The position numbers were made by a program, and so were the translations under genes. This document shows positions 31,917-57,324 of a stretch of DNA of 57,413 nt, one piece after another (positions within the stretch are counted from its first letter, which is position 1; every line of letters starts with the position of its first letter). The stretch lies in IMG/VR virus record IMGVR_UViG_3300032116_000239, positions 1 through 57,413 of that record, one strand, 5' to 3'. The DNA comes from a virus. Its lineage: Duplodnaviria; Caudoviricetes. The notes beneath the pieces were generated by a model. That model had not been told where the DNA came from. It did no database searches and worked only from the letters and a program-made list of their open reading frames with translations.

Positions 31917-31921
31917 CCAAC

Positions 31922-32404
31922 ATGATGGAACACGACCTCGTAAAAGAACTGTTTGACTATCGTGATGGTCACTTGTACTGGAAGAAGAAAACCAACAAGA
32001 GACACAGCATCGACAAGCCCGCTGGGACGATCAACTCCCTTGGCTACGTTGTCATCACGCTCAACGGCAAGAAGATGCATGAGCACAGGCTGGTGTGGTT
32101 GTGGCACGGCAAAGAGTTGCCTGTGATGATTGACCACATCAACCGAGACAAGTCAGACAACAGGATTGAGAACCTTCGCGCTGCTGACTACATCACCAAC
32201 TCGTACAACAGCAAGCTGAAGACCGACAACACCTCTGGCGTCAAAGGCGTGAGTTGGTGCAATACCTACAACAAGTGGGTTGTGCAGATTTACGCGAACA
32301 AGCAGAAGATTTCTAAACGGTTTGACCTGATGCAAGATGCCATTGACTTTGCCAAGCAAAAGCGCCAAGAGTTGCATCAAGCATTTGCCTGTGAAGGGGT
32401 ATAA
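31922..32404 (+). CDS. HNH homing endonuclease inserted in the fibre gene
   Basis: HEHRLVW...IDHINRDKSDNRIENLR, NTSGVKGVSW. Confidence 0.9.
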   Translation: MMEHDLVKELFDYRDGHLYWKKKTNKRHSIDKPAGTINSLGYVVITLNGKKMHEHRLVWLWHGKELPVMIDHINRDKSDNRIENLRAADYITNSYNSKLKTDNTSGVKGVSWCNTYNKWVVQIYANKQKISKRFDLMQDAIDFAKQKRQELHQAFACEGV

Positions 32405-32406
32405 AA

Positions 32407-32934
32407 ATGGCAGCATTTGCTACATCGTATATACCGACACAAGCCTCCCAAGTCACCCGAGCAGCGGACAATGCGTCGATGCTGGGGGATAACTTTGCGA
32501 CTTGGTTCAATGCGAGTCAGGGGACGTTGTACGCGGAAGCCACAAGCAGTGTTCCTAGTTCCGATGCAGTGGTTAGGTTTGCTGCCGTTGTGTTTGACGC
32601 AGCTAGCTACTCAAATGCTTTGAGACTTGAGCGTCTTGGTGGTTCTGCTAGGTATGTCCAAACCGTGAGCGGAGTAAGCAACGTAGCAACCGCGACTTGG
32701 AACGCGGGCGATACGGTTGCAATAGCAGCGGCATACCAAAACAGCAATAACGCAGCAGCGTTCAACGGCGGGGCAGCACAGGCTGTTGCTGGCAACGTGC
32801 CGACGGGGCTTGTAACTCTTGGCATAGGCGGCCACGGCACGATAAGCGCTAACAGTCTTTGCGGGTATGTGCGCTCCATCAGCTACTACCCCACGCGCCT
32901 GTCCAACGCAACTCTTCAGGCCATCACAGCATGA
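32407..32934 (+). CDS. Fibre protein C-terminal part (LamG/ConA-like)
   Basis: Begins AFATSYIPT...VTRAAD, the usual continuation of WGAQLE. Ends YYPTRLSNATLQAIT. Confidence 0.8.
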   Translation: MAAFATSYIPTQASQVTRAADNASMLGDNFATWFNASQGTLYAEATSSVPSSDAVVRFAAVVFDAASYSNALRLERLGGSARYVQTVSGVSNVATATWNAGDTVAIAAAYQNSNNAAAFNGGAAQAVAGNVPTGLVTLGIGGHGTISANSLCGYVRSISYYPTRLSNATLQAITA

Positions 32935-35154: not shown

Positions 35155-36213
35155 ATGTCTATCCAAAACTACGGCACCGTTGCGTCGCGAAACCTCATTC
35201 GCGCGGCGCAAGGCATGCTGGAGCACGCACAGCCCATCACTGTTCTGGGTGACTTTGGCACCCAGCGCGAGATGCCCCAGAACTCGACCGACACCCTGGT
35301 CTTCCGTCGTACGCTGCCCTTCGGCGCTTCGACCACCGGCACGACGATCGAGAACAGCCAGCGCTACGTTGGCACGCCTGACGTCACGGCGTCGAACTTC
35401 GTGCTGGCTGAAGGCGTCACGCCCAACGCCAACACGATCTCGTTCCAGGACGTGAGCGTGCAGCTGCAGCAGTACGGTATCTTGTTCAAGTACAGCTCCA
35501 AGGTCGAGCAGCTGTACGAAGACGACATCCCTGGCGAGATGGTCAAGCTGACTGGCGAGACCCTGGCCGAGGTGATGGAGCTCGTGCGCTACGGCGTGCT
35601 GAAGGCCGGCTCCACGGTGATCTACGCCAACGGCTCCAGCCGCTCGGCCGTGAACACCGCGATCAGCCTGAACGCCCTGCGCAAGGCCGCTCGTACGCTG
35701 GAGTCCAACCGCGCTCGCCGCGTGACCAGCCGCCTGGCTCCTGGCGTGAACTTCGGCACCCGTGCTGTGCAGCCCGCGTTCATCGTGTTCTGCCACACCG
35801 ACGCTGTGAGCGACGTGCGTAACCTGCCCGGCTTCACCCGGGTGGAAGAGTACGGCTCGTTCAAGCCCATCCACGACCGTGAGGTCGGGGCTTGCGAGGA
35901 CTTCCGCTTCATCAGCTCGCCGCTGCTCAAGAGCTTCGCCGCTTCGGGCTCCGGCACGCTCAACGGCATGCTGTCCATCGGCGCCTCCAACGTGGACGTG
36001 TACCCCTTCATCATCATCGGTGAGGACTGCTGGGGCCAGGTTGCGCTCAAGGGCATGGCGGCCATCAAGCCGGTGGTGCTCAAGGCCAGCCAGACCAACC
36101 ACGCCAACCCGCTGGGCCAGTTCGGCTACGTGGGTGCTTCGACATGGTTCGCCACGGTCCGCCTCAACGACGCCTTCATGGCTCGTATCGAGGCCGGCGT
36201 GACCGCTCTGTGA
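35155..36213 (+). CDS. Major capsid protein (N4-gp56 family)
   Basis: FG....MP.N....FRR, L.EGVTP, LQQYG, EVG....RF, NPLGQ.GYVG. Confidence 0.92.
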   Translation: MSIQNYGTVASRNLIRAAQGMLEHAQPITVLGDFGTQREMPQNSTDTLVFRRTLPFGASTTGTTIENSQRYVGTPDVTASNFVLAEGVTPNANTISFQDVSVQLQQYGILFKYSSKVEQLYEDDIPGEMVKLTGETLAEVMELVRYGVLKAGSTVIYANGSSRSAVNTAISLNALRKAARTLESNRARRVTSRLAPGVNFGTRAVQPAFIVFCHTDAVSDVRNLPGFTRVEEYGSFKPIHDREVGACEDFRFISSPLLKSFAASGSGTLNGMLSIGASNVDVYPFIIIGEDCWGQVALKGMAAIKPVVLKASQTNHANPLGQFGYVGASTWFATVRLNDAFMARIEAGVTAL

Positions 36214-45171: not shown

Positions 45172-45642
45172 GTGATGTTGGAAGCACTCTTCTCTTTTCT
45201 CGGCGGCTCGGTTTTCCGCATGATCTGGGGCGAGGTTTCGGCTTGGTACAACAAGCGGCAGGATCACGCTTTCGAGATTGAGCGCTTGCGGCTGCAGTCC
45301 GACCTGGACGCAGCGCAGCACCAGCGCACGCAGGAAATGCTGCGCCTGCAAAGCGAGCTTGGCATCAAGACGGTGGCGGCGCAAGCAGAGGCGGATGTGG
45401 CCACAGCCGAAGCCGACGCCTTTGTCAAAGCCATGGAGAACGCTTTCAAGCCCTCAGGCTGGGCCTTCGTGGACATCTGGAACGGAATCATCCGCCCGTC
45501 GGCTGCCACCATTGCGCTGACGTTGTGGGTGCTTAAGCTCAACAGCCAGAACTGGATCATGCAGGAGTGGGACATCACTCTGGCGGGGACGGTGTTGGGT
45601 TTTTTCTTTGCGGACCGCAGCCTTGGCAAGCGTGGAAGGTAA
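45172..45642 (+). CDS. Probable holin
   Basis: Hydrophobic N-terminus, coiled coil, W...IRP and FFF.DRSL.KR; precedes the lysozyme. Confidence 0.65.
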   Translation: MMLEALFSFLGGSVFRMIWGEVSAWYNKRQDHAFEIERLRLQSDLDAAQHQRTQEMLRLQSELGIKTVAAQAEADVATAEADAFVKAMENAFKPSGWAFVDIWNGIIRPSAATIALTLWVLKLNSQNWIMQEWDITLAGTVLGFFFADRSLGKRGR

Positions 45643-46084
45643 GGCTGTCGCGGTTGCACGGGACCTATGTCTCGTGTTCGAGGGCATGTACCTCAAGCCG
45701 TATCTGTGCCCGGCCAACGTGCCGACCATCGGCGTCGGCTCGACTTTCTACGAGGACGGTACGCGCGTATCGTTGGCTGATCCTGCGATCACTCGCGAGA
45801 GAGCGATGGCGCTATTGGAGTGGGAGCTAAACCACTGCCTGCCCAGAGTGCGGCGTTTGTGCCCGGGGCTCAAAGATTGGGGCGAACAGGCCACGGGCGC
45901 CATTCTGGATTTCGCCTTCAACTGCGGCGTCGGCGCTTTGCAAGGCAGCACGTTGCGCAAGCGCATCAATGCTGACGACGAGGCAGGAGCCAAGGCCGAG
46001 CTGATGCGCTGGACGCGCGGCGGCGGCCGAGTTTTACCAGGACTTGTGAAAAGACGTGCGGCAGAGGTAGCGCTGCTGCCCTGA
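45632..46084 (+). CDS. Endolysin, GH24 lysozyme
   Basis: FEG...PYLCPANVPTIG.G.T, DFAFN.G, STLRKRIN, LPGLVKRR.AE. Confidence 0.92.
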   Translation: MEGKAVAVARDLCLVFEGMYLKPYLCPANVPTIGVGSTFYEDGTRVSLADPAITRERAMALLEWELNHCLPRVRRLCPGLKDWGEQATGAILDFAFNCGVGALQGSTLRKRINADDEAGAKAELMRWTRGGGRVLPGLVKRRAAEVALLP

Positions 46085-46106
46085 CGCCCCTACAATTTTC
46101 TCCGGG

Positions 46107-46141
46107 AAGGGCTGCCCATCGGGCGGCCCTTTCTAGCTTTT
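46107..46141 (+). terminator. Hairpin/terminator after the lysis genes
   Basis: AAGGGCTGCCC-ATC-GGGCGGCCCTT followed by TCTAGCTTTT. Confidence 0.55.
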
Positions 46142-46152
46142 GAGGCCTGAAC

Positions 46153-48816
46153 ATGGCAGAAACCAACCCGTTCGACATCAACACCGGAAACGCGAACACG
46201 TTCGCCGCTCGTGAGCGCAGCGTTGACCGCGGAACCGAGACCGCTGCGGGCCAGGTAGAGGGCCTGCTGGCCAAGGACAGTCCACTGCTGCAGCGTGCCC
46301 GCACGCAGGCCATGCAGGGCATGAACCAGCGCGGACTGGTCAACAGCTCCATGGCTCAGGGCGCTGGCGTAGCCGCGATGATCGACCGCGTCACGCCGCT
46401 GGCCCAGCAGGACGCGCAGACCTACGCAAACCAAGCGCTGTCCAACCAGAAGGCTTTCAACGAAGCCGGGATGTTCAGCGCGAGCGAGAAGAACAAGTTC
46501 GGCCTGCAGCTGGGCGAGCAGAAGTTCACCCGTGGTGAGAACGAGGCTCAGCGCAAGTTCCAGACTTCAGAGCGCACCGCCGGCCAGGCGTTCACGGCTG
46601 AGCAGACGAGGGCGACGCAGAACTTCACGGCTGCGCAAACCGCGCTGGACCGAGCACTGCAGACGTCTTTGGCTGACAAGTCGATTGAGGCGACGCAGGC
46701 CCTGGAAACGGCGCGGCAGAACTTCAGCGCTGCGCAGGCTGCTCTTGACCGATCGCAGCAAACCTCGCTGCAGGAGAAGCAGCAGGCGTTCCAATCAACT
46801 CAGAACAATCTGGACCGCCAGCAGCAGTTCCAGCTGCAGCAGGCACAGCAGACGTTCCAAGGTTCTCAGGCAGAGCTTGAGCGCGCTCAGCAGATCATGC
46901 TGGCCGACAAGAACATCACAGCTCAGAGGGCCCTGGAGCAAGCGCGTCAAGAGTTTCAGCGCGGAGAGTCTGCGCTGGATCGCACTCAGCAGACGGCGCT
47001 GCAACAGGCACAACAGACGTTCCAAGCCTCTCAGGGTGAGCTTGATCGCGCTCAACAGCTCATGCTGGCCGACAAGAACATCACGGCTCAACAGGCTCTG
47101 GAGAGGGCGCGTCAGGAGTTCCAAGGCACGCAGGCAGAGCTGGATCGCACTCAGCAGACGGCGCTGCAGACGGCACAGCAGACGTTCCAAGGCTCTCAGG
47201 CAGAGCTTGACCGCGCTCAGCAGACGGCGCTGCAGACGGCACAGCAGACGTTCCAAGGCTCTCAGGCAGAGCTTGAGCGCGCTCAGCAGATCATGCTGGC
47301 CGACAAGAACATCACGGCTCAGCAGGCCCTGGAGAAGGCGCGTCAGGAGTTCCAGAAGGGAGAGTCCCAACTGGATCGCACCCAGCAGACGGCGCTGCAG
47401 CAGGCACAGCAGACGTTCCAAGGCTCTCAGGCAGAGCTTGATCGCGCTCAGCAGATCATGCTGGCCGACAAGAACATCACGGCTCAGAAGGCTCTGGAGC
47501 AAGCGCGACAGGAATTCCAGCGCGGAGAGTCTGCGCTGGATCGCACTCAGCAGACGGCGCTGCAGCAGGCACAGCAGACGTTCCAGGGCTCTCAGGCAGA
47601 GCTTGATCGCGCTCAGCAGATCATGCTGGCCGACAAGAACATCACAGCCCAGAAGGCTCTGGAGACCGCGCGTCAAGAGTTCCAGCGCGGAGAGTCTGCG
47701 CTGGATCGCACTCAGCAGACCGCGCTGCAGCAGGCGCAGCAGACGTTCCAAGGCTCTCAGGCAGAGCTTGATCGCGCTCAGCAGATCATGCTGGCCGACA
47801 AGAACATCACGGCTCAGCAGGCCCTGGAGAAGGCGCGTCAGGAGTTCCAGAGCGGAGAGTCTGCGCTGGATCGCACTCAGCAGACGGCGCTGCAGCAGGC
47901 GCAGCAGACGTTCCAAGGCTCTCAGGCAGAGCTTGATCGCGCTCAGCAGATCATGCTGGCCGACAAGAACATCACGGCTCAGCAGGCCCTGGAGCAAGCG
48001 CGTCAGGAGTTCCAGCGCGGAGAGTCTGCGCTGGATCGCACTCAGCAGACGGCGCTGCAGCAGGCGCAGCAGACGTTCCAAGGCTCCCAGGCAGAGCTTG
48101 ATCGCGCTCAGCAGATCATGCTGGCCGACAAGAACATCACGGCTCAGAAGGCTCTGGAGACCGCGCGTCAGGAGTTCCAGCGCGCAGAGTCTGGACTGGA
48201 TCGAACGCAGCAGTCCAACCTGCAGACTAATCAGCAAGCGTTCCAACGCGAGCAGGCCGGGCTGGATCGCACGCAGCAGCAGACCCTGCAGCAGGCGCAG
48301 CAGAGCTTCCAGGCCACTCAAGCGCAGCTCGACCGCACGCAGCAAGAGGCCATGATCAGGTTGCAGAACACGCTGTCGCAGTCCAGCGTCTCGGGCACTT
48401 TCGCGGCCAACATCACGGCCAACACCAGCTCTGCGATCAACGCCCTCCTGGCTGATCCGAACTTGAGCTCAGAGGTGAACTCCAGTACCGGGAAGAGCCC
48501 GAAGCAGCAGGCAATCGACAACGTCATTGCCAACGCCAACGCCACGCTGCAGTGGGGCGCGTCGTTCTACAACACGACGCTGCCCGGAATTACTGGACCA
48601 GGCGGCACGTCCACGCCGATCGCGCCGGGTGGTAATGCAGCCGCGCCCGCTCCAGCTCCTGCGCCTGCGCCTGCACCAGCGCCTGCACCAGCGCCGGCGA
48701 CGGGTGGTGGCGGCGTCATTGGGGACGCAAGAGCTTCCGTGCAAGACCAGTGGGGTCGAAGCCCGTTTGACCCGATGTACGGCGTCAATCCGTACGTTGA
48801 ATCAAGCGGCCCATGA
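46153..48816 (+). CDS. Gln-rich repeat coiled-coil protein, putative ejection/DNA-pilot protein
   Basis: RGLVNSSMA motif, 55-aa tandem repeats, (AP)n linker; first gene of the ejection module. Confidence 0.7.
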   Translation: MAETNPFDINTGNANTFAARERSVDRGTETAAGQVEGLLAKDSPLLQRARTQAMQGMNQRGLVNSSMAQGAGVAAMIDRVTPLAQQDAQTYANQALSNQKAFNEAGMFSASEKNKFGLQLGEQKFTRGENEAQRKFQTSERTAGQAFTAEQTRATQNFTAAQTALDRALQTSLADKSIEATQALETARQNFSAAQAALDRSQQTSLQEKQQAFQSTQNNLDRQQQFQLQQAQQTFQGSQAELERAQQIMLADKNITAQRALEQARQEFQRGESALDRTQQTALQQAQQTFQASQGELDRAQQLMLADKNITAQQALERARQEFQGTQAELDRTQQTALQTAQQTFQGSQAELDRAQQTALQTAQQTFQGSQAELERAQQIMLADKNITAQQALEKARQEFQKGESQLDRTQQTALQQAQQTFQGSQAELDRAQQIMLADKNITAQKALEQARQEFQRGESALDRTQQTALQQAQQTFQGSQAELDRAQQIMLADKNITAQKALETARQEFQRGESALDRTQQTALQQAQQTFQGSQAELDRAQQIMLADKNITAQQALEKARQEFQSGESALDRTQQTALQQAQQTFQGSQAELDRAQQIMLADKNITAQQALEQARQEFQRGESALDRTQQTALQQAQQTFQGSQAELDRAQQIMLADKNITAQKALETARQEFQRAESGLDRTQQSNLQTNQQAFQREQAGLDRTQQQTLQQAQQSFQATQAQLDRTQQEAMIRLQNTLSQSSVSGTFAANITANTSSAINALLADPNLSSEVNSSTGKSPKQQAIDNVIANANATLQWGASFYNTTLPGITGPGGTSTPIAPGGNAAAPAPAPAPAPAPAPAPAPATGGGGVIGDARASVQDQWGRSPFDPMYGVNPYVESSGP
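46837..48222 (+). repeat. 165-bp coding tandem repeat, 8 copies plus one extra 66-bp unit
   Basis: GCCGACAAGAACATCAC at 46903, 47068, 47299, 47464, 47629, 47794, 47959 and 48124. Confidence 0.95.
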
Positions 48817-49259
48817 CCAAGATCGTCTGCCGCAAAGCCAAGATCGGCGACTTGCCGGCGATCGTGGACCTCGCCTGCGAGTCGGTGTCTCGCGATCCGT
48901 TGCCGGTCAAGGTCGACCGCGACGGCATGCTGGAGACAGGCAAGACGCTGCTCAACCCGGCGCACTTCCTCTGGGTCGCAGAGGACGGGTCTGGCAACGT
49001 GGTGGGTGCGGTGGCTGCGTGCGCGCAGCAGTCGTTTTGGTATCGGGGCCTGCAGTGCAGCGTGATGCTGTACTACGCGCGGGTGCCCGGCGCGGGCGCA
49101 GCGTTGCTGCGCGAGTTCGCTCGGTGGGTGAAGTCCCGCTCGGGCATCAAGGTAGCGGTGCTGGAGCTGGAACCCAGCACCGACATCCGGCTGATCAGGT
49201 TCCTGCGCCGCCTCGGGTTTGAGCGCAAGAGCATCAACATGAGCTACGTAAGAACGTAA
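48813..49259 (+). CDS. GNAT-fold protein
   Basis: R.A...DLPAIV.L, WVAE..G.VVG, GAALLREF..W, FLRRLGF; position typical of podovirus GNAT-like assembly proteins. Confidence 0.7.
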   Translation: MTKIVCRKAKIGDLPAIVDLACESVSRDPLPVKVDRDGMLETGKTLLNPAHFLWVAEDGSGNVVGAVAACAQQSFWYRGLQCSVMLYYARVPGAGAALLREFARWVKSRSGIKVAVLELEPSTDIRLIRFLRRLGFERKSINMSYVRT

Positions 49260-49270
49260 AGGAGCTCCAA

Positions 49271-49951
49271 GTGTCAAAAGTCGTCAAGGGCGTAGGCCGC
49301 GCGATCGGTAAGGTCGTCAAGGGCGTTGGCAACGTCGTCAAGAAGGTCGCCAAGTCCAAGCTGGGCAAGATCTTGGTGGGTGCTGCACTGGTCTACTTTG
49401 GTGGTGCTGCGCTGATGGGCGGACTCAGCAGTGCAACCGCAGGAGGCAGTTTCCTGACAGGCGCTAGTGCAGGGTTATCCAGTGCGGCATCGGGGATAAG
49501 CGGCGCCTGGACAGCGCTGACTGGAGGCGGCGGGTCCGTCACGGGCTCTCTCAGCTCTGGCTTCTCTGGCGCCAGCGCGGCCGGGGCCCAGGCAGCCAAC
49601 GCCGCGGCTATAACGCCAGGGGCTTACGCCGGCACGCTGGGGAGCGGCGCCGCAACTGGGGCAGGATCGCAGGCAGCCTTGCTGGCTGAGCAAACTGCCG
49701 GCTTTGGCGCAAAAGGACTGTCCGCAACGCAGGCCGCGGCGCAAACCGCGATTCCTGGGGCGGCCGGCGCCGGCGGCTCCGGCATCATCAGCGGCATGTG
49801 GAACGGTCTCGGCCCCTACGGCAAGGCCGCAGCGGTCTCTGGCGGCCTGCAGCTCGGCGGCGCGATGTACGCCAAGAAGGAGCAGGAAGACGCCACGGAA
49901 GAGCAGCGCGCCAACTACAACCAGAACATCGGCGGCTTCACCTACGCCTGA
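49271..49951 (+). CDS. Small Gly/Ala-rich ejection protein
   Basis: Cationic amphipathic N-terminus, TM segment, glycine-rich body. Confidence 0.65.
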   Translation: MSKVVKGVGRAIGKVVKGVGNVVKKVAKSKLGKILVGAALVYFGGAALMGGLSSATAGGSFLTGASAGLSSAASGISGAWTALTGGGGSVTGSLSSGFSGASAAGAQAANAAAITPGAYAGTLGSGAATGAGSQAALLAEQTAGFGAKGLSATQAAAQTAIPGAAGAGGSGIISGMWNGLGPYGKAAAVSGGLQLGGAMYAKKEQEDATEEQRANYNQNIGGFTYA

Positions 49952-49962
49952 AAGGAATCATC

Positions 49963-50460
49963 ATGGCAGGACTGATCAAAGAGCAGATGGCTCCTGGGCA
50001 GGAGGCGATGCCGCCGCAAGGTGAGATGCCCCCGATGGACGACGAGGGTGGTGAGGACGCTGACAGCAATCCGCAGTACGTCACCGCGCTGAAGTTTGCG
50101 ATGCAGGCGCTGTACGAGAACGGCGGTGCGGAAGGTGTGGCTGAAGGGCTGCGCACCGCCACAGACCCGGTGGATGGCCTGGCCAACACCGCCTACGAGA
50201 TCACGTCGGTTGTGGACGAGCGCACCGAGGGCAGCGTGCCTGACGAGCTCTTCGCGCTGTTGGCGACCAAGATCCTCGAAGAGGTCGCTGACATAGGCGG
50301 CGCAGCGGGCATCCAGTACAAGCCCTCGGACATCGCCCTGGCGTTGAAGCAGATGATCCTGCGCTACCTCGGCGAGCAGGGGATGGACACCTCGCAGCTG
50401 CAGCAGGCGATGGACCAGGTCGATCCCGAAGAGTTCAACCGCATGGCGCAGGAGGCTTAA
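49963..50460 (+). CDS. Acidic hypothetical protein (ejection module)
   Basis: AAGGA RBS; Met/Pro-rich N-terminus. Confidence 0.65.
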   Translation: MAGLIKEQMAPGQEAMPPQGEMPPMDDEGGEDADSNPQYVTALKFAMQALYENGGAEGVAEGLRTATDPVDGLANTAYEITSVVDERTEGSVPDELFALLATKILEEVADIGGAAGIQYKPSDIALALKQMILRYLGEQGMDTSQLQQAMDQVDPEEFNRMAQEA

Positions 50461-51576
50461 ATGGCCGGGCTGATCGGACAAGCGATCTCGAACATCGGTT
50501 CGACGATCGGCAACTACATGCTCCAGTCGAACCTGCAAGAGGACCGGCAGGAAGAGCGCCGCCGTGAGCGCGAAGAGGACGCCAGGCGGCAGGCCGAGCG
50601 CGATGCGCTGTACCGCCGCACGGCTGACCAGCAGACGGCTGCAGCGCGCAGCAGCGGCGGTGGTGCGGATGGCGGGCTGCCTGCCAAGAGCATCGGCGAG
50701 GGTGGCGAAGACGAGGCCATGCTGGCTCGCGCTGCCGGGCTGACCGTGCCTGAGCTGCGTGCGCTGCGGCAATACTCCTCAACCGGCGACAAGGAGCCGT
50801 TCAAGCGCGACGTGACGCGCTACAGCCGCGATCAAGATGACACGATGGCCGGGCCCAACGATGAGTTCGGCGACGCTGTCTCGCGCAAGACCGCCAAGCT
50901 GGTCGAGGAAAAGGCCAAGGAGCTGCCGCCCGGGTTCGAGCCTGAGATACGCGCCAAGATGCAATCTCTCGCCCGCATCGAGGAGTCCTACCGGCTGGGC
51001 AAGAACTACAAGGAAGTCACCGAGGGTCGTCAGAACGAGTTCGAGACTGATGTCGGCAAGGGCATCCTGAGCGGCGCTGTTGGCCCAGGCCGGGGCGCGG
51101 CCTCGGTCGGCGGCATGAAGGGCAACGCCGTCTTTGAGGGCGACAGCAACACCACCCGCAACCGCTACAGCGGTGAGTCCGGCGCGACAGCGGTGGGGCA
51201 GTCAGTCATTACCGAAAACCGTGCACAGGCTGGCAAGGCGTCCGCTGACGCTCGGGCCACGGCGGATGGCAAGGGCAAGGTGGACATCACCGGCGTGGCC
51301 GCCAACGCTGCCAACCTAATCAAGCTCGCCGAGGCGGCTGACAACGAGGGCAACACGGAAGAGGCGAAGCGGCTGCGCAAGGAAGCGGCCCGGCTGTCGA
51401 CGGGCGCTGGCGACAAGAAGGTGCCGCCTTCCGACCGCGGCGGTGCGGGGCCCGCTCCTAGCCGGCTCAAGGTGGGCGATGTCGTTGAGGGCTACCGGTT
51501 CATGGGTGGCAATCCCAACGACCCGAAAAGTTGGACTCCTGCCAGCCGTTCTGCGGCCGGCTCGGTTGCGAGGTAA
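50461..51576 (+). CDS. Probable ejection protein
   Basis: 371 aa, helical; C-terminal G.V..GYRF.GG.P.D..W module. Confidence 0.65.
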   Translation: MAGLIGQAISNIGSTIGNYMLQSNLQEDRQEERRREREEDARRQAERDALYRRTADQQTAAARSSGGGADGGLPAKSIGEGGEDEAMLARAAGLTVPELRALRQYSSTGDKEPFKRDVTRYSRDQDDTMAGPNDEFGDAVSRKTAKLVEEKAKELPPGFEPEIRAKMQSLARIEESYRLGKNYKEVTEGRQNEFETDVGKGILSGAVGPGRGAASVGGMKGNAVFEGDSNTTRNRYSGESGATAVGQSVITENRAQAGKASADARATADGKGKVDITGVAANAANLIKLAEAADNEGNTEEAKRLRKEAARLSTGAGDKKVPPSDRGGAGPAPSRLKVGDVVEGYRFMGGNPNDPKSWTPASRSAAGSVAR

Positions 51577-51582
51577 CACAGC

Positions 51583-54500
51583 ATGGCGAACCCCTGGGAA
51601 AGAGCGTGGGCGGTTGAGGATGAGGAGGCCAAGCCGTGGACCCGTTCCTGGGAAGTTGATGCGCCTGATCGAAAACCCGCCGGGTTCTTCAGCGAACTTG
51701 GGTCGGCCGTCAGCGAAGGCGCGCAGAAGACCTACCGCTCGGCACGCGCTGCGCTCAGCACCTACCTGGGCGCTGGCGAAGACGTCGTCGAGCAGTCGGC
51801 GCGCACGCAAGAGATTGAGCGGGACTCTCGCGCCACCGGCCTGACCCAACTCAAGCGAGACGTTCAAGCGCGCAAGGTCGCGGACGACGACTCGCTGTGG
51901 TCTGGCATCAAGAACGTCGCCGGCGCCATTATTGACAACCCGCGCGGCGGGGCACAGCTGGTGGCTGAGCAGGCGCCCAACGCCGCTGTGGCACTGGGCA
52001 CAGGCTTCGCCGGGGCCAAGGGCGGCGCGCTGATCGGCTCTGCGTTCGGCCCTGTGGGCACCGCAGTCGGTGGAACGGTCGGCTTCATCACCGGTCTGTT
52101 CGGCGCGAACACGCTGCTGGAGACCGGCGGCAAGGCGATTGAGGCTGGTCAAGACAAGCAGTTCACACCCGCAGAGCGCGAGCGCGTGATGCGCGAGGGC
52201 GCGGTCAAGGGCGCAGTCATCACCGGTGTTGACGCGGTCACCCTGGGCGCAAGCAAGTACGTGCTTGGCGCAGCGAATCGCGCCGTCGAGCAAGCCACCG
52301 TGCGTACGCTGTCAGACGCTGGCATCGACGCGCAGAAAGCCGCGCAAGCTATCCAGCAGGCGCAGCGCGATGCGCTGCAAGCCGGCCGGGGCCTGAGCCG
52401 CGAGGCGCTGCAGGAGTCCGTTGAGAAGGCGACGGTCGAGGCGATGGCCCGCCAAGGTCTGCTCAAGCCTGACCTGGTGTCGGCTGTGCAGTCCGCGCAG
52501 AAAGCCGCCTTCGACACCAGCACCACGCTTGCGAAACGCACGGGACGCGGTGCGACCGCGCTGGGCTTGGAGTCGTTCGGCGAGGGACTGGGCGAGTACA
52601 CCGGTGAGCTGGCCGCTACCGGTGAGGCGTCGTTCACCGATGCGGCGCTGGAGTCTGTGGCCGGCTTGGCCACGAGCCTGCCTGAGCTGTACGTCGCCAA
52701 GCGGCTTGACCAGCCGGGCATCCTGACTCAGGAGATGTCGCGCTCCCGTCCGCTCGACCAGGCGTCGCCGCCCGCACCGCCCTCCGCGCTGCAGGACCTC
52801 GGCACCGCCAACACCGAGCTCAGCTCAGCGGTGGACTCCTACCTGCGCGATCTCGGCCAGGCCCGCACCGCCGACGAGGCGATCAATGCAGCGGTCAGCG
52901 CGGCCTCGGTGCCGGTGGCTCCGACCCTGCCGCCGCTGCCCACCATGGACGAGCGGCTGGCCGCCGCGGAGAGCCCGGGCCTGCTCGGCCGTCAGCTCGA
53001 CATCCAGCGCCAGCTCGATCAAGCCGCCGGCTTGGACGTCGCGCCGACTGCCGAGCGTCCTGCGTTGCCGACTCTGCCGCCGCTGCCGCAGCCCGCTGCC
53101 CAGCGCAACATGGAGCTGATGGGCCAAGCTGCGCAGGCCGGCACGGAGTTCGAGCGCCAGCAGGCGCTTGAGCAGGCCAAGGTCTCGCTGCCCACTCCGG
53201 CACCGGGCCCGGCCGCCCGCTACGCCGACCTCACGCCGATGGACGCGCGCCAGGCGCAGCAGCGGCTGACGGTGCTGCAGGAGCAGACCGGCACCCCGCT
53301 GAGCCTGGAGATCGTCCCGCACCCGGCGCAGAAGGAGCGCTTTGCGATCGGCCGGCGCGAGCTGCCGGTCAGCGCCGCCGACCTGGAGATGCCGGACCTG
53401 CGCGCCCCTGTGGCGCCTGCGCAAGCCCAGGTGCAGATCGAGTCTGCAGCCCTGGCCGGCAAGGAAGTGCAGCGCCGCGCAGAGGACGCGCCGCGCCAGC
53501 AGATGATCAGCCGGGCGATGGCCAACATCGAAGCCCGCGGCGGAGTGGCCTCACCCTACGAGGCAGAGCTGCTGCGCTCGGCCAACCTGGGCCAGCCGTA
53601 CAACAGCATTGATCCGAACCTTGGCCGCCCGGCTTCTCAGGACCAACTGCTGACCGCAGCCACCGGCATCCCGGTCGGCTCCGAGGCGGGTCTGGGCTAC
53701 GGTGCTCGCACAGACAATGCGCTGACCGACATTGCGCAACAGACCGCGCAACAGCGCGGCGAGCTCGTGCAGCGAAACCCGCAAGCTGCGGGACAGAACA
53801 TCTTCTCCCGGGTCAGCGACCAAGACGTTCAGCAGCGCATCCCGTTGGAGCGCAACCGCACGCCGGACGATGTCTCCACCGGGTTTGCCTACACGCCCGA
53901 GCTGCAGGGCCGCAAGCGCGCCGAGCCGGCGGAGCAAGCTGCGCCGCAGGCCGACATCGTCGGCACGTTCGTGCAGCAGATGCGCGAGACCAACACGCCC
54001 GCAGCCCGGGCGTTCGTGCAGGACTACGAGGCCGGGCGCATCTCGCCGGCTGAGGTGCAAAGCGCGCTGGACATCCAGCGTGGTCTGCCGCCAAGCTCGC
54101 AAGAGCGCATCGAGGGCGCGGCCGCAGCAGCGCCGGCTCCCGCCACGCCGACCGGCGTGCAGGTGGAAACGCCCAGCGCCAGAGTCGAGAACCCCGCACT
54201 GCGCGAGGCGGTGGAGCTGTACGGCAACCGCCCGCTCACGCAGCAAGACCTGACGGTGGAGGGCGCCACGGCGCGCATCGCTCGCGCCGGCCAGCAGGCT
54301 CCGGCACCGCAGGTCACGGCAAGCGGCATCGAGATCGCCCAGAGCGAGGACCTGACGCCACGCGGGGCGTTCCGCGGGCGCAACGAGGCGATCCGTGCCG
54401 GCAATAACCTGCCGAGGCCGACGATGGTCGGCGGCCGCCGTGCCGCGTCGCTCACGGACGCTGATCTGCAGCAGACAGCCAACGACATGGGGCTGCCGGC

Positions 54501-57324
54501 GATCACCCGCCGCGGCGCTCAGATTGAGCTGTTGGCGCGCCAACAGACCGAGCGGGCAGCTGCCCCTGCCCAGCCGCCGGCTGACGATGTCAGCGCGCGT
54601 CTGCAGGCCGCTGCGGCTCAAGCCACCAAGCCCCTAGACCAGCCTGCGCCGGGGCGCATCATCACCTCTGGGGTGAAGATGTCCACCGCCCGGGCGGCGG
54701 TGCCGGGCAGCACGCTGACGGTCAACGACCAGGGCACCGACCACCAGCTTCGCGTAGTGGACAGCTCCACGCTCGGCGAGCCGGGAAAGATGATCCAGCA
54801 GGTGGCTCGGATCTTCGGCAAGAAGGTGGTCGTGTTCGAGTCCGACACCGCGCAGGTGGACGGCTTCGTGCGCGACGACGACGACTCCACGATCTACCTC
54901 AGCTCAAAGTCCAGCGTCTCGCCGCTGGCCGTGTTCGGCCACGAGCTCACGCACCTGATCAAGCGCGACAGCCCCGAGGCCTACAGCGCGCTGGAGGCGG
55001 TGGTCAAGGCCAACCTGAAGCCCGAGGGCATGGCCGGGTTCGAGCAGGACTACGGCCAGGGCGCGAACCTGGAGGAGCTCTCCAGCGATCTGGTGGGCAA
55101 CCGGTTCCAGGAGGCCGACTTCTGGAACGGCGTGTTCGAGGACATTGCTGCCAAGAACCCCGAGCAGTCGCGCGGCATCATCACCCGGCTGGCCGCGTCG
55201 GTGAACAAGGCGGTCAACGCCTTCATGCGCGTGGTGCGCGGCCAGACGTTCAACGCTGACCAGTACGTCAAGGATCTGACCGCGGTGAAGGCCGCGGTGC
55301 GCACCGCAGTAAGCCAGTACGCGCAGCAGCGCCGCGAGCCGGCCATGCGCCTGGACGCCGAGCTCATGCGTCAGGAGAGCCAGGTCGACTTGACCGCGGG
55401 CTCTCGCATGCCCGCGAGCGCAAGTGTGGCTGGCGAAACGGCAGAGCCGATGGGCATCACGGCAAGCGCGACTCGCGCAGCGCCGCAGCCGCAGACCTCC
55501 GAGGCCCTGCCCGTGCCGGCCAGCGAGTGGAAGGCATCGACCTCCGACAAGCAGCAGGCCAAGACCTACGCCGAGAACAACGGCATCGACCCGTACCTGT
55601 CCGAGGGCCAGCTGCAGCCCCCGGTGGTCTCGGCGAAGTTCTCCGTCAAGCGGCCCTACGGCGACAAGGACCTGGCCAAGGGGCGCGAGAACCACCCGGT
55701 GCTGGGCCTGCCGCTCAACGCCAACGGCACGGTCACGCTGTACTTCCCCGCCACCAACGAGGAGGCTCGCCGCGTCGCCAAGGACAAGCGGCTGCGCGGG
55801 GCCACCCCCGAGAGCAACCGGATCTACCTCACCAACGAGTCGAGCGGGCCGAAGGTTGCGGACAACCCGGGCAACATTGAGCAGCCGGTGGACGGCGCCA
55901 ACGTCCTGGTGCAGGTGGACCCCGAGCTGCTGCACTTGGACCAGGAGCACTCCGACGGGCGCAAGGACTTCTTCATCCAGCTCGCCGAAGGCGAGGCGTT
56001 TGCGCGCAAGATGGCGCAGACCAAGCTCTTCACGCTGGACGCTCCGCGCGACGCGCCGCTGTCCAAGAGCACCTCGATCTCCGACATCACCGAGGGCGTC
56101 ACCAAGGCGATCAACAACTACCGCAGCCTGGCGTTGCGGGAGCGACGCGAGGCGCTGCGCAACGCACGCGAGGTCCTCAAGCGCGAGCACAACGTCGGCA
56201 CGCTGCTGGGCGAGAACGGCAAGCTGGAGAAGACCCGCATCGGTGACTACGGCCTGGACTACGACGGCAAGAGCGTTGCGTCGCTGGGCCTGGGCCTAGC
56301 CAGCGCGCAGAAGATCAACGAGAAGCTCTCCACCTGCCCGCAGGCCGCGCGCTGCGAGGGGCTGTGCCTGGGTGAGACCAGCGGCCAGAACCTGCTCTAC
56401 GGCGGTGACGGTCAGTTTCGCAGCGGCCCTCGGCTGAGCCAGTACCTCAAGACCGAGGCGCTGGTGCAGCACCCCGAGGAGTTCGCGGTGGTGCTGTTCA
56501 ACGAGATCGAGCGCTTCTCGCGCAACATGGGCAAGGAAGACATCCAGCCCGCGATCCGGCTGAACGTCACGAGTGACTTCCCGCCCAAGGTGTTCGAGTC
56601 GATCATCCGCGCCTTCCCCGGCACGATGTTCTATGACTACACCAAGCTGGACTCGCGCCCGATCGCCGACAACCACCACCTGACCTACAGCTCCACCGGC
56701 GTGGCCCAGGAGGTCGGCGGCAAGGTGATCGGCGTGCCCGATCGCGCTGCCGGCAACCCCGGGGCCAACTGGACGCAGATGGTCAAGAAGCTCAACCAGG
56801 GCTTCAACGTGGCGATGGCGTTTACCAGCCGCACCTCAATGCCAGAGTTCCTCAAGGACGAGGCCACGGGGCAGTTGTTCCGCGTGTGGAACGGCGACAA
56901 CTACGACGCCCGGTTCCTTGATCCGAAGCAGGACGACGGCATCGGCATGATCGTCGGCCTGACCAACAAGGACCGCACCGGCAAGCCCGAGGACGCGGCG
57001 CTCAAGTACGACGGGTTCTTCGTCGACTACGACCCTGAGCGTGACGGACCGACGCTGCTGATCCGCGATCAGAACGCGCTGGCGGAGAAGGCGCGCGGGC
57101 CTGAGCGCAAGACGATCCCGCTGGTGCAGGCATCGCGCTCAAGAGAACGCGCCGCAACCGACATTCCGCTGGCAGAATTGCGCGGCCGCAAGGTCGCCAT
57201 GCAGGTTCGCGTCGAGTCCACCGGCGAGACCGGCACGCTGACCATGGACGCCGGCGATTCGCTCACTGACATCAACGAGCGAGAAGCCGCCATGCAACGC
57301 CTGCTGGAGTGCGTGCGCAAATGA
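51583..57324 (+). CDS. Large polyvalent ejection protein with zincin metallopeptidase and GP88-like domain
   Basis: 1913 aa. Gly-zipper TM region; GHELTH...EE zincin motif; TCPQAARCEGLCL, IRLNVTSD, FYDYTK, HLTYS, GD..DARFLD. Confidence 0.75.
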   Translation: MANPWERAWAVEDEEAKPWTRSWEVDAPDRKPAGFFSELGSAVSEGAQKTYRSARAALSTYLGAGEDVVEQSARTQEIERDSRATGLTQLKRDVQARKVADDDSLWSGIKNVAGAIIDNPRGGAQLVAEQAPNAAVALGTGFAGAKGGALIGSAFGPVGTAVGGTVGFITGLFGANTLLETGGKAIEAGQDKQFTPAERERVMREGAVKGAVITGVDAVTLGASKYVLGAANRAVEQATVRTLSDAGIDAQKAAQAIQQAQRDALQAGRGLSREALQESVEKATVEAMARQGLLKPDLVSAVQSAQKAAFDTSTTLAKRTGRGATALGLESFGEGLGEYTGELAATGEASFTDAALESVAGLATSLPELYVAKRLDQPGILTQEMSRSRPLDQASPPAPPSALQDLGTANTELSSAVDSYLRDLGQARTADEAINAAVSAASVPVAPTLPPLPTMDERLAAAESPGLLGRQLDIQRQLDQAAGLDVAPTAERPALPTLPPLPQPAAQRNMELMGQAAQAGTEFERQQALEQAKVSLPTPAPGPAARYADLTPMDARQAQQRLTVLQEQTGTPLSLEIVPHPAQKERFAIGRRELPVSAADLEMPDLRAPVAPAQAQVQIESAALAGKEVQRRAEDAPRQQMISRAMANIEARGGVASPYEAELLRSANLGQPYNSIDPNLGRPASQDQLLTAATGIPVGSEAGLGYGARTDNALTDIAQQTAQQRGELVQRNPQAAGQNIFSRVSDQDVQQRIPLERNRTPDDVSTGFAYTPELQGRKRAEPAEQAAPQADIVGTFVQQMRETNTPAARAFVQDYEAGRISPAEVQSALDIQRGLPPSSQERIEGAAAAAPAPATPTGVQVETPSARVENPALREAVELYGNRPLTQQDLTVEGATARIARAGQQAPAPQVTASGIEIAQSEDLTPRGAFRGRNEAIRAGNNLPRPTMVGGRRAASLTDADLQQTANDMGLPAITRRGAQIELLARQQTERAAAPAQPPADDVSARLQAAAAQATKPLDQPAPGRIITSGVKMSTARAAVPGSTLTVNDQGTDHQLRVVDSSTLGEPGKMIQQVARIFGKKVVVFESDTAQVDGFVRDDDDSTIYLSSKSSVSPLAVFGHELTHLIKRDSPEAYSALEAVVKANLKPEGMAGFEQDYGQGANLEELSSDLVGNRFQEADFWNGVFEDIAAKNPEQSRGIITRLAASVNKAVNAFMRVVRGQTFNADQYVKDLTAVKAAVRTAVSQYAQQRREPAMRLDAELMRQESQVDLTAGSRMPASASVAGETAEPMGITASATRAAPQPQTSEALPVPASEWKASTSDKQQAKTYAENNGIDPYLSEGQLQPPVVSAKFSVKRPYGDKDLAKGRENHPVLGLPLNANGTVTLYFPATNEEARRVAKDKRLRGATPESNRIYLTNESSGPKVADNPGNIEQPVDGANVLVQVDPELLHLDQEHSDGRKDFFIQLAEGEAFARKMAQTKLFTLDAPRDAPLSKSTSISDITEGVTKAINNYRSLALRERREALRNAREVLKREHNVGTLLGENGKLEKTRIGDYGLDYDGKSVASLGLGLASAQKINEKLSTCPQAARCEGLCLGETSGQNLLYGGDGQFRSGPRLSQYLKTEALVQHPEEFAVVLFNEIERFSRNMGKEDIQPAIRLNVTSDFPPKVFESIIRAFPGTMFYDYTKLDSRPIADNHHLTYSSTGVAQEVGGKVIGVPDRAAGNPGANWTQMVKKLNQGFNVAMAFTSRTSMPEFLKDEATGQLFRVWNGDNYDARFLDPKQDDGIGMIVGLTNKDRTGKPEDAALKYDGFFVDYDPERDGPTLLIRDQNALAEKARGPERKTIPLVQASRSRERAATDIPLAELRGRKVAMQVRVESTGETGTLTMDAGDSLTDINEREAAMQRLLECVRK

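Follow-up and report, generated by a model that had tools for sequence, protein, structure and literature searches.

The gene at positions 46153-48816 (+ strand) of the analysed viral DNA (57,413 nucleotides in full, hereafter the window) is, judged by its sequence relationships, a member of a large and unnamed protein family of uncultured freshwater phages, in which protein length changes predominantly in steps of eleven residues. We propose that the encoded protein (referred to here as the rod protein) forms a straight hendecad coiled-coil rod and is probably a virion component of a putative ejection module, a reading to which we give a probability of somewhat less than one half (about 0.45). 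The proposal builds on the repeat anatomy, the periodicity, the family and its quantised lengths, the synteny and a shared motif, from which we infer oligomerisation, virion location, ejection and role. The family would be among the clearest natural cases of protein length quantised by coiled-coil geometry: its hundreds of relatives cover about 16 to 145 nm in steps of 11 residues, and the rare exceptions fall on the well-known +4/+7 discontinuities. Structural biology would gain a ready-made graded series of straight, polar-core hendecad rods, and phage biology an abundant and entirely unannotated component, together with a shared short motif, in a putative ejection module of widespread uncultured freshwater phages. 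Moreover, should the rod be either ejected or exposed on the outside, the rapid variation of its length would constitute a new and simple axis of host adaptation.

The open reading frame starts at an ATG and encodes 887 residues. Its frame was taken as the right one because relatives keep the N- and C-domains, and two long overlapping frames (46532-48355 on the + strand and 46795-48345 on the - strand) were rejected as by-products of the repeat. All parts of the protein are encoded on the + strand. At the extreme N-terminus, family conservation marks an 'NPFD' motif (aa 5-8; 46165-46176), which is kept at this end of the family even where extra domains follow it, P6 and D8 being nearly invariant (alignment A3). 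A conserved N-domain (aa 20-67; 46210-46353), delimited by alignment and model, consists of two to three short helices (26-29, 31-39 and 44-60) and ends in the anchor 'RGLVNSSM' (aa 60-67; 46330-46353; alignment and model), which caps the long helix. The long helical region itself (aa 68-743, some 676 residues; 46354-48381), defined by the AlphaFold2 model and a periodicity of 3.67, would measure about 100 nm if continuous. It is followed by a conserved C-domain (aa 745-818; 48385-48606; alignment and model), a predicted helix-turn-helix cap (748-766 and 783-805) with consensus 'FAAN...SAINA..ADPNL...AI.NVI..AN.T.QWG..FY.T.LP', by a Pro-Ala linker evident in the sequence (aa 826-848; 48628-48696) and by a C-terminal tail recognised through relatives (aa 849-887; 48697-48813; 'GGVIGDA...WGRSPFDPMYGVNPY'), which also occurs in 9 of 72 distinct phage-contig relatives. 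The rod protein has no membrane segment and, by inspection, no signal peptide. A promoter and terminator scan gave no match at the gene borders; an imperfect GC-rich hairpin with a T-run, seen by eye between the endolysin stop and the rod start codon, was given no weight.

The helix is dominated by an array of 22- and 33-residue units (aa 166-726; 46648-48330), 561 residues or 51 hendecads in total, which we parsed by cutting at L-[D/E]-R boundaries. The unit order is 33, 22, 22, 33, 22, 33, 22, 22, 33, 22, 33, 22, 33, 22, 33, 22, 33, 22, 33, 22, 22, and by inspection the 33-residue unit is a 22-residue unit with an 11-residue insert, 'ADKNITAQKAL'. The parse confirms the eight 55-residue repeats (22+33) and the extra 22-residue unit of the initial annotation, placing the blocks at aa 221, 276, 353, 408, 463, 518, 573 and 628 and the extra unit at aa 331, and it adds four more, degenerate units at aa 166, 199, 683 and 705. 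At the DNA level the most recent tandem copies lie at 47205-48213, where Tandem Repeats Finder reported a 165-nt period with 6.1 copies, 93% matches and a score of 1703; further periods of 66, 231 and 396 nt over the array are likewise multiples of 33 nt. The composition of aa 131-760 is 25% Q, 16% A, 9% T, 9% L, 7% E and 7% R with zero proline, and the proline-free stretch extends over residues 83-768.

With such an array, the repeat number in the window might be an assembly artefact, i.e. copies collapsed or expanded in a protein that is itself real. The 55-residue blocks are pairwise 85-98% identical over 165 nt (seven of the eight, the block at aa 276 being left out), and in four public runs the short-read contigs, which recovered both array flanks without differences, included none that bridged 46825-48130, the inside being represented by pieces of 65-112 nt only. 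The holders of the matching runs are labelled 'freshwater', 'lake water' and 'fungus' metagenome. We nevertheless regard a wrong count as unlikely, if to be taken seriously, given that the copies differ enough for placement and that arrays as long or longer are found on many independent contigs; in any case a mis-count would leave the family-level result unchanged.

An exhaustive search returned 3069 proteins at E<=1e-3, of which 790 reach <=1e-10 and 92 reach <=1e-30; the 790 are cluster representatives, every one of them unnamed. A word-indexed search gave 96 matches, and in IMG/VR a relative is encoded in 466 of 483 pattern-matched stretches. By tblastn, 50,697 phage records yielded a single match for the rod protein, an uncultured record, and no match for its acidic neighbour. 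Bacterial and archaeal genomes held no relative when queried with the single protein; a closer alignment found eight loci there, all in metagenome-assembled bins and one on a 57.7-kb contig, and no host can be named because the bins are of mixed taxa. Family members consist of a single long helix between a small helical N-domain and a small C-domain, with optional small add-on domains on flexible Pro/Ala/Thr linkers at either end; DUF4214 was found in 7 of the 9 extended relatives scanned, and some variable domains are inserted between the N-terminal motif and the N-domain. One high-scoring match (P0124, 2909 aa, E 3e-49) proved an unrelated repetitive protein with neither end domain, and therefore only relatives with both anchors were counted.

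Foldseek gave no match in the PDB at E<=0.001, and a PDB sequence profile search (alignment A2) returned chance antibody matches only (E 0.2-0.7). Against BFVD, four matches reached E<=0.001. Uncultured phages are the source of all four; three are uncharacterised and the fourth is named for an intramolecular-chaperone (fibre-type) domain (E 5.6e-6); the ESM Atlas offered viral 'hypothetical protein' clusters only. The Pfam scan of the rod protein (E<=0.01) produced just one sub-threshold match, DUF7854. We rejected the NCBIfam match to pneumococcal PspA (31 bits against a cut-off of 850) as a product of coiled-coil and Pro-rich composition, and the PHROG matches phrog_17907, 10270 and 11998 as families with no assigned function and no significant stretch.

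The clearest property of the family is the quantisation of its length. The distance between the N- and C-anchors equals 10 modulo 11 in 142 of the 163 database relatives with both anchors, the remainder being 3 in 14 cases, 6 in six and 2 in one. The phage contigs, with only 2 of 54 proteins identical to the database set, behave alike: 47 of 54 distinct ORFs are at 10 modulo 11, four at 3, two at 6 and one at 5. In most of the exceptions the shift is +4 or +7. These counts concern members related by descent and hence not independent events. Between anchors the family spans 109-967 residues (175-967 in the phage-contig set), which corresponds to helices of about 106 to 964 residues, or about 16 to 145 nm. 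Close relatives can differ about two-fold in protein length (327 versus 636 aa), and near-identical ones differ by 55, 66, 77, 176, 187 or 209 aa, figures that serve as examples only since they mix rod indels with variable C-tails and stem from non-independent pairs. Duplication of 22- and 33-residue units alone would give the modulo-11 rule trivially. However, short members in which tandem repeats are not obvious (109-175 residues between anchors) follow the rule as well, in single 11-residue steps, and therefore count against such a trivial origin. The expectation of the initial annotation that length shifts keep the register is thus strongly supported, and it has withstood one of the refutations that the annotation itself had named, homologue indels that are not multiples of 11.

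The same number governs the periodicity. The top Fourier peak of hydrophobicity over aa 68-766 lies at a period of 3.67 (11/3), which together with the missing proline and the modelled helix bears out the earlier description of a Pro-free, 11-residue-periodic long helix. More specifically, the 11-residue register is sharply position-specific, positions 2, 6 and 9 being hydrophobic and position 3 being Q in 51 of 64 hendecads, whereas the 7-residue register is flat over the helix. The hydrophobic seam is formed by positions 5, 9, 2 and 6, with the conserved Q about 115 degrees away. The a, d, e and h core positions of a hendecad coiled coil recur along the whole helix. The core is Ala-rich and polar: about one in three of its a and e positions is Q. 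Family-wide, the best period falls at 3.60-3.74 in 129 of 163 relatives (101 of 108 among those with helices of at least 200 aa) and at 3.45-3.55 in none of the 163. AlphaFold2 models a 327-aa relative as a single unbroken helix over 72-287 with pLDDT values mostly above 90 (mean pLDDT 84), the means of 10-residue blocks being mostly 83-98 and falling to 56-67 at the C-terminal end (251-270); the window's protein was modelled as helix over 68-766 with low confidence (mean pLDDT 64.9). From the sequence pattern the helix would be expected to associate with its own copies as a coiled coil. A trimer model of the 327-aa relative (residues 25-327, three copies, alignment A2) scored 0.07 against a mark of 0.42 and was given no weight in either direction.

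The genomic context links the gene to a conserved cluster, of which the members below are all encoded on the + strand. Directly upstream lies an endolysin gene (PF00959; 45608-46084; Pfam/PHROG). Downstream, a GNAT acetyltransferase gene (48813-49259; ORF, Pfam/PHROG, synteny) has a start that overlaps the rod stop (ATGA). It is followed by a protein rich in Gly and Ala, amphipathic and Lys-rich at its N-terminus and with one membrane-type segment at aa 34-52 (49271-49951; sequence and synteny), an acidic protein starting 'MAGLIKEQM' (49963-50460; ORF and synteny) and a 371-aa protein starting 'MAGLIGQAI' (50461-51576; ORF and synteny), a candidate helical tunnel-type ejection protein. The cluster continues with the first part, 1913 aa, of a giant protein (51583-57324) with a weak N-terminal tail-lysin match and a match to PF17338 (GP88). 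At the window start, a 1187-aa ORF with a DarB-like part (2-3565; phrog_14770, E 1.5e-202) matches the C-terminal ~900 aa of phage giant proteins of ~3400 aa, and in two relatives (L001 and L017) its counterpart sits within the giant ORF of the module. The order rod, GNAT, Gly-rich, acidic recurs in 31 of the 32 loci listed with a length of 15 kb or more, in which the ~370-aa protein was detected in 10 and the giant ORF in 3. Locus L001 has the rod and giant genes only, with GNAT not adjoining, and a distant relative (L084) as well as MW202426.1 show a matching gene order by ORF sizes.

In the known ejection operons of podoviruses three kinds of product come together, one a small membrane protein, one a helical tunnel protein and one of giant size (PMC11445570, in the part available). 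The rod gene, too, has genes for a small membrane protein and a giant protein in its cluster, and by this analogy the module resembles a podovirus internal or ejection-protein operon, its ejection role being putative. The window also has portal, major capsid protein, terminase and tail-fibre-like genes, and tail tube, sheath and tape-measure families found no match among the 26 ORFs scanned, which makes the earlier assignment to a dsDNA podovirus plausible. In addition, the rod protein has a short motif, G-[LIV]-[IV]-x3-M, in common with three module proteins. It occurs at the N-domain anchor in 63 of 70 rod family members, with an extra N-tail copy in 30 of the 70, within the first 40 aa of the acidic protein in 36 of 46 and within the last 70 aa of the Gly-rich protein in 35 of 51; it was found in 0/52 GNAT proteins, 0/34 and 0/34 tail proteins, 0/28 lysozymes and 0/23 p229 proteins.

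In the preferred reading, the single narrow L/F/A/M seam, alternating with Q, would join copies of the helix into a straight, essentially non-supercoiled, few-stranded rod, about 100 nm long for the window's protein. This length would change when the 33-, 66- and 165-nt DNA repeats recombine unequally or slip, and we propose that only 11-residue steps or +4/+7 discontinuities persist because other steps break the seam. Because of the operon-like cluster and the shared motif, the rod may be packaged with the module proteins and exit the capsid together with them. It would then act as an accessory spacer, a tether or a needle-like lead element of the ejection apparatus rather than as a DNA-conducting tube. 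By estimate, a rod of 100-145 nm exceeds the capsid interior expected for a 57-kb genome and would have to bend or be stored otherwise, a point against the ejection reading.

Conserved end domains with free length variation would also suit an external virion fibre, whether on the head, in the centre of the tail or as a tail needle or plug of the P22 gp26 kind. Such a fibre would be anchored by its N-terminus, with rod length setting the reach through surface layers and the optional end domains (DUF4214 and others) binding surface structures. The free length variation between near-identical phages and the swapping of small modules on Pro-rich linkers at the ends (with DUF4214 as noted) point this way, and P22 has its needle gene immediately upstream of those for the ejection proteins. 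The BFVD match to a fibre protein is of the same tenor, though a long helix alone may explain it. However, the C-domain equals the N-domain in conservation and forms a small helical cap, unlike a typical receptor-binding domain; variable domains occur on the N-terminal side too; the motif is common to presumed internal proteins and not to tail proteins; and needle and fibre families gave no PHROG or Pfam match. On balance we consider an external fibre rather unlikely.

We also doubt that the protein stays outside the virion, as an assembly factor or scaffold for ejection proteins or as a late cytoplasmic filament former. Such a role would fit the first gene of the module, translationally coupled to GNAT, and a product without membrane segment or signal peptide, and a docking-like motif might be as useful for transient chaperoning as for co-packaging. 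A rod of up to about 960 helical residues, or length variation that keeps the register, would have no obvious use in a chaperone, and the linker-borne add-on domains look rather like exposed binding modules.

A more elaborate version of ejection is equally doubtful in our view. In the short-tailed phages of this group, the straight, pre-formed hendecad coiled coil would be a tape-measure-like thread, spooled in the capsid and slim enough to pass through the tail channel, that leaves before the DNA and sets the reach of ejection (through capsule, S-layer or periplasm); recombination among its own repeats would retune it in steps of 1.6 nm (11 residues), and the G-[LIV]-[IV]-x3-M tags would link it with the membrane-active and giant ejected proteins. 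As to the earlier suggestion of a tape-measure analogue, only the arithmetic of 11-residue units holds; the 26 ORFs scanned gave no match to long-tail genes, which such a ruler would measure.

Because the model of the window's protein is weak and broken at ADK[NS] sites, hinges or a folded-back form keep a small share of the probability. Nine short breaks (175-177, 250-255, 307-309, 384-387, 439-442, 491-498, 549-551, 604-606 and 659-661) all coincide with these sites, and by inspection each 33-residue unit has two conserved Ile opposite the main seam. If these were true helix breaks, the protein would be a zig-zag or bundle of helices of 33-77 residues and lengths in nanometres would be meaningless. 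We think this improbable: pLDDT at the breaks is below 50, whereas the 327-aa relative has 'TDKSV' and 'ADKSI' inside its unbroken helix with block means of 92-98. Moreover, unit order is free among relatives, with all-33 arrays (P0010), all-22 runs (P0021) and the 55- or 77-residue spacing of the window's protein, which misfits a fixed hairpin architecture.

Least probable is the proposal of the initial annotation that many copies form an alpha-helical barrel like that of phiX174 H, with a Gln-lined lumen that conducts dsDNA across the envelope and perhaps also across a capsule or S-layer, its length tuned in 11-residue steps: hendecad periodicity in a Q/R-rich protein, the nearly invariant Q at one hendecad position, a gene within a putative ejection module and the N/Q/R residues at 18 of 23 inward positions of the H lumen (PMC7354561, as far as available) would agree with it, but nothing tested supports it, and sequence, fold and length range speak against it. 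More specifically, PHROGs, Pfam, PDB sequences and PDB folds gave no match to H or to any tunnel protein (T7 gp15, DEV gp72 and P22 gp20 included), nor did the Pfam Microvirus H family at E<=0.01. Each helix has one narrow hydrophobic seam, and a barrel would probably need two or else expose F and L to the lumen, though the geometry of this seam and the conserved Q is compatible with either outcome. The module has separate genes for membrane, ~370-aa and giant proteins, the sizes of which resemble the known ejection trio (PMC11445570, available part). A conduit fitted to one envelope sits badly with anchor distances that vary over 109-967 residues, with helices of ~16 to 145 nm and with an about two-fold difference in protein length between close relatives; the shortest helices could not span an envelope.

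Among known systems, phiX174 H shares with the rod protein Gln-rich helices with hendecads and a proposed role at genome delivery (PMC7354561, available part). The two are not homologous, and H is itself mostly heptads, with three hendecads followed by eleven heptads among the 14 coiled-coil repeats named in Table 1 of the available part of PMC7354561 and a decameric tube of 17 nm, whereas the rod protein has at least 51 consecutive hendecads and a single hydrophobic seam. The stalk of tetrabrachion, a right-handed hendecad coiled coil, shares with the rod protein an unbroken 11/3 periodicity and a core at positions a, d, e and h; the rod differs in its polar, Ala-rich core, in being a phage protein and in its far more variable lengths. 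The P22 needle gp26 is heptad-based, trimeric and about 24 nm long, whereas the rod is hendecad-based and reaches up to ~145 nm in the family, and the gp26 family gave no PHROG or Pfam match. As is proposed for the rod, gp26 is a coiled-coil fibre (PMC3741392, available part).

The operons of T7 (gp14/15/16) and DEV (gp73/72/71) likewise encode all-helical proteins, clustered with one giant and one small membrane protein; the module described here has the rod, GNAT and acidic proteins as extra members, and repeat-driven length variation of the kind seen in the rod is not described for the T7 and DEV ejection proteins in the available part of PMC11445570. The tail tape measure proteins with 11-residue repeats differ from the rod in sequence, with no sequence, Pfam or PHROG match, and in context: tube, sheath and chaperone genes had no match among the 26 ORFs scanned, and the rod gene has lysis genes upstream and GNAT, membrane and giant proteins downstream, which is not a tail module. 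A protein annotated as lambda GpH appeared in the Foldseek search at E 0.38 only. The two-fold length variation between close relatives is also one that the ruler of a fixed tail would not permit. Nevertheless, in the available part of Belcaid et al. 2011 (PMC3271669) these tape measures are, like the rod, long and helical with a variable count of 11-residue units; their units are marked by W or F, as F marks the rod every 22 or 33 residues, and in both cases length evolves through the duplication and loss of units.

The rod family is characterised by one long Pro-free helix with a straight (11/3) hydrophobic seam and a length that changes in steps of 11 residues, and the rod gene is the first of a conserved, putative ejection module. 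In the window the rod is the 887-aa product of the ORF called at 46153-48816 (+ strand); its repeat region is rich in Gln (25%) and Ala (16%), and proline is absent from residues 83 to 768. Tandem Repeats Finder revealed a period of 165 nt at 47205-48213 (6.1 copies, 93% matches, score 1703), together with further periods of 66, 231 and 396 nt, each a multiple of 33 nt. When the protein was cut at its L-[D/E]-R boundaries, residues 166 to 726 (561 residues, i.e. 51 x 11) fell apart into 22- and 33-residue units. As assembled, the array comprises eight 22+33 blocks, four degenerate units and one extra 22-residue unit; DNA identity is 85-98% among the seven blocks compared (the block at residue 276 lay outside the comparison), and inspection showed that a 22-residue unit plus an 11-residue insert makes a 33-residue unit. 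The initial annotation, which had described near-identical 55-residue repeats with 22/33 sub-units, Pro-free and rich in Gln, Ala, Glu and Arg, was correct on each of these points according to repeat finder, unit parsing and composition. The hydrophobicity of residues 68-766 has its top periodicity at 3.67 residues, or 11/3. Arranged in an 11-residue register, the sequence is hydrophobic at positions 2, 6 and 9 and has Gln at position 3 in 51 of 64 hendecads; the 7-residue register is flat.

On sequence criteria, the rod is a member of a large, unnamed family. A word-indexed search returned 96 relatives, and an exhaustive search of 1.84 billion cluster representatives returned 3069 proteins (E<=1e-3), of which 790 reached 1e-10 and 92 reached 1e-30; its weak end contains spurious repeat matches such as P0124. 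In IMG/VR, 466 of the 483 pattern-matched stretches code for a relative, and each of the eight matches in the genome collection belongs to a metagenome bin, the bins being of mixed taxa. Among 50,697 phage records searched, the rod matched one uncultured record, and no cultured relative came to light. The sources name the relatives only 'hypothetical protein', save for one sigma-subunit label that we took as a mis-annotation, and no informative match to the rod was obtained in Pfam, PHROGs, NCBIfam, the PDB (sequence or fold), BFVD or the ESM Atlas. The plan is common to all members: the motif 'M-A-T-T-x-x-N-P-F-D' at the extreme N-terminus, a conserved N-domain with 'RGL[VI]NSSM' at its end, a Gln-rich middle of very variable length and a conserved C-domain around 'ADPNL ... 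AI.N ... AN ... W ... FY.T.LP'. Some carry small extra domains at either end on Pro/Ala/Thr linkers, and DUF4214 was found in seven of nine extended relatives scanned. The rod of one related IMG/VR phage contig (L079) has an N-domain 54% identical to that of the query; this contig and the window have essentially no common 20-mers (<6 of those sampled), and their equal size of 57413 bases is a coincidence.

The AlphaFold2 model of a 327-aa relative (alignment of 78 sequences, mean pLDDT 84) contains a single unbroken helix, residues 72-287, with confidence mostly >90, which starts just past 'NSS' and ends just before the 'ADPN' position. The model of the query (31 sequences, mean pLDDT 64.9) is helical from residue 68 to 766 and has nine short low-confidence breaks, all at 'ADK[NS]' sites. 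This coincidence would fit true hinges, a reading that we keep as a rival; however, two 'ADK[NS]'-type sites lie within the confident, unbroken helix of the short relative, and the breaks are therefore regarded as probable compaction artefacts of the monomer model.

For the length analysis, the 'NSSM' column of the N-domain and the 'ADPN' column of the C-domain were located as anchors in every relative by HMMs built from the family. Among members that are related by descent, the distance between the anchors equals 10 mod 11 in 142 of the 163 database relatives in which each anchor occurs once (14 in class 3, 6 in class 6, 1 in class 2; range 109-703 residues) and in 47 of 54 distinct IMG/VR ORFs, two of them identical to proteins of the database set (4 in class 3, 2 in class 6, 1 in class 5; range 175-967); duplication of 22- or 33-residue units alone keeps multiples of 11, and identical units could be mis-counted in short-read assemblies. 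For the repeat count of the window, no short-read contig from four public runs bridged 46825-48130. The caveat on unit duplication is countered by the shortest members, which have no obvious tandem repeats and keep the rule in single 11-residue steps, all steps from 109 to 263 being occupied in the database set. In P0027, a relative from the protein search, residues 173-205 form three consecutive near-identical units 'FQTxEREAxQx', which shows that single hendecads, and not just 22- and 33-residue units, have been duplicated in the family. The off-classes lie at +4 and +7, which established coiled-coil knowledge assigns to insertions of pentadecad and heptad type into a hendecad coiled coil. 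The best hydrophobic period was 3.60-3.74 in 129 of the 163 relatives, and in 101 of the 108 whose helix has 200 or more residues; a peak at 3.45-3.55 was seen in none of the 163. Near-identical relatives differ by clean blocks of, for example, 55, 66, 77, 176, 187 and 209 residues. The 703 residues between the anchors of the query are the longest of the database set, not of the family, the longest contig relative having 967 in a 1207-aa protein.

To judge by its gene content, the window seems to be the whole, or nearly the whole, genome of a short-tailed phage. It encodes a terminase (25524-26987), a portal (26999-29272; best match 36% identical, from an uncultured freshwater phage), tail and fibre-like proteins, a major capsid protein (35155-36213) and a probable scaffold, followed by a holin-like gene and, before the rod, an endolysin (45608-46084). 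The ORFs at 29625-31916 (763 aa) and 32407-32934 (175 aa) match successive stretches of a single tail-protein family, phrog_5939 (positions 395-583 and 586-761), and an HNH endonuclease ORF (31922-32404; phrog_99, E 1.6e-54) sits between them. The GC content around 29625-32934 is 0.53-0.57 versus 0.62-0.72 in most other 2-kb bins, and the region has the appearance of a tail gene into which a homing endonuclease has been inserted. Between the endolysin stop and the rod start codon (46085-46152) an imperfect GC-rich hairpin is followed by a T-rich run, which may constitute a transcript boundary; the hairpin was not called by a pattern scan for promoters and terminators. A GAGG lies ~9 nt upstream of the rod ATG. 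Two long frames over the array, 46532-48355 (+, 607 aa) and 46795-48345 (-, 516 aa), were rejected as genes and are stop-free by-products of the repeats.

Downstream of the rod gene, the window encodes, in this order, a small GNAT acetyltransferase, a Gly/Ala-rich protein that has one membrane-type segment, an acidic protein, one of 371 aa and a giant protein. The order rod-GNAT-Gly-rich-acidic was found in 31 of the 32 listed loci of at least 15 kb, and the ~370-aa protein and the giant ORF were detected in 10 and 3 of these, respectively. A distant relative and MW202426.1 have a matching gene order as judged by ORF sizes. GNAT directly follows the rod in 31 of the 32 loci, the exception being L001, which has rod and giant only; in the window (GNAT gene at 48813-49259) its start overlaps the rod stop (ATGA), and the gene is translationally coupled to that of the rod. 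Most module proteins start with M-A or M-S, typical of N-terminal acetylation substrates, although to view them as substrates of the GNAT is speculation. The giant protein is represented by two ORFs at the end and start of the window, 51583-57324 (1913 aa) and 2-3565 (1187 aa), with the contig ends and ~90 nt between them. The 1187-aa part is similar to a DarB-like family and to the C-terminal ~900 residues of phage giant proteins of ~3400 aa; in loci L001 and L017 its matches lie within the one giant ORF that the module has there (3145 aa in L001). The gene may be genuinely split in the window, or else the circular contig was cut beside a stop.

A short motif, counted as G-[LIVM]-[LIVMA]-x3-M, recurs in several module proteins. 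It is found at the N-domain anchor of the rod ('RGLVNSSM', window 46330-46353) in 63 of 70 distinct ORFs, as an extra copy in the rod N-tail ('GIVGGAM') in 30 and in the last 120 residues in 11 of the 70, as well as in the first 40 residues of the acidic protein ('MAGLIKDQM'; 36/46) and the last 70 of the Gly-rich protein (35/51); a relaxed form occurs at the start of the ~370-aa protein (22/24). It was found nowhere in GNAT (0/52), two tail proteins (0/34 and 0/34), lysozymes (0/28) or p229 (0/23). The narrower form G-[LIV]-[IV]-x3-M, followed through the window and loci L002-L081, is absent from the GNAT, tail, lysis and capsid proteins there; in the window it marks the same rod site, the acidic protein at 49963-49992 and the C-terminal part of the Gly-rich protein (49271-49951), and the relaxed form the N-terminus of the ~370-aa protein (50461-50490). 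The motif may serve these proteins as a shared tag for docking or packaging. In addition, the C-terminal tail of the rod (48697-48813), 'G-I-V-x-x-A-M ... W-G-R-x-P-x-D-P-M-Y-G-x-[D/N]-P', is shared by 9 of 72 relatives. It bears a loose likeness to the 'GLVxxxM ... YNPY' tails seen in 9 of 51 Gly-rich proteins, as though one tail module moved between the two.

The seam of the helix is single and narrow (11-register positions 5, 9, 2 and 6 being small, A/L, F/Q and L/Q), which is typical of a few-stranded coiled coil and points to a homo-oligomeric rod. We propose that the protein forms a nearly non-supercoiled coiled coil, predicted to be ~100 nm long for the window and ~16-145 nm across the family. 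Its length would change through recombination among the 33/66/165-nt repeats, and only changes that leave the seam in register would survive. The rod would be packaged and released together with its module neighbours and act as a spacer, tether or needle-like lead element. We give this model as a whole a probability of about 45%, and are more confident of its structural part alone.

The suggestion of a tape measure retains the 11-residue arithmetic, as some tape measures vary by such units (PMC3271669), but the likeness ends there: no match to tube, sheath or tape-measure proteins was obtained among 26 ORFs scanned, and no long-tail genes were found in the window for the rod to measure. The DNA conduit resembling phiX174 H, put forward in the initial annotation, is very improbable and found no backing in homology, seam, module or length range, since a Pfam scan gave no homology to H, the helix carries one seam only, a candidate tunnel trio is encoded by other module genes, helix lengths run from too short for the envelope to five times the need, protein length varies about two-fold among close relatives (327 vs 636 aa), and H itself (PMC7354561) has three hendecads and then eleven heptads, in a tube of just 17 nm. 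Known podovirus ejection operons encode a small membrane protein, a giant protein and, between these, a helical protein of the periplasmic tunnel (PMC11445570). The Gly-rich, 371-aa and giant proteins of the window agree with that trio in sizes and order, the Gly-rich protein being the one also checked for a membrane-type segment. With these three as the putative trio, the rod, GNAT and the acidic protein would be additional members of such an operon.
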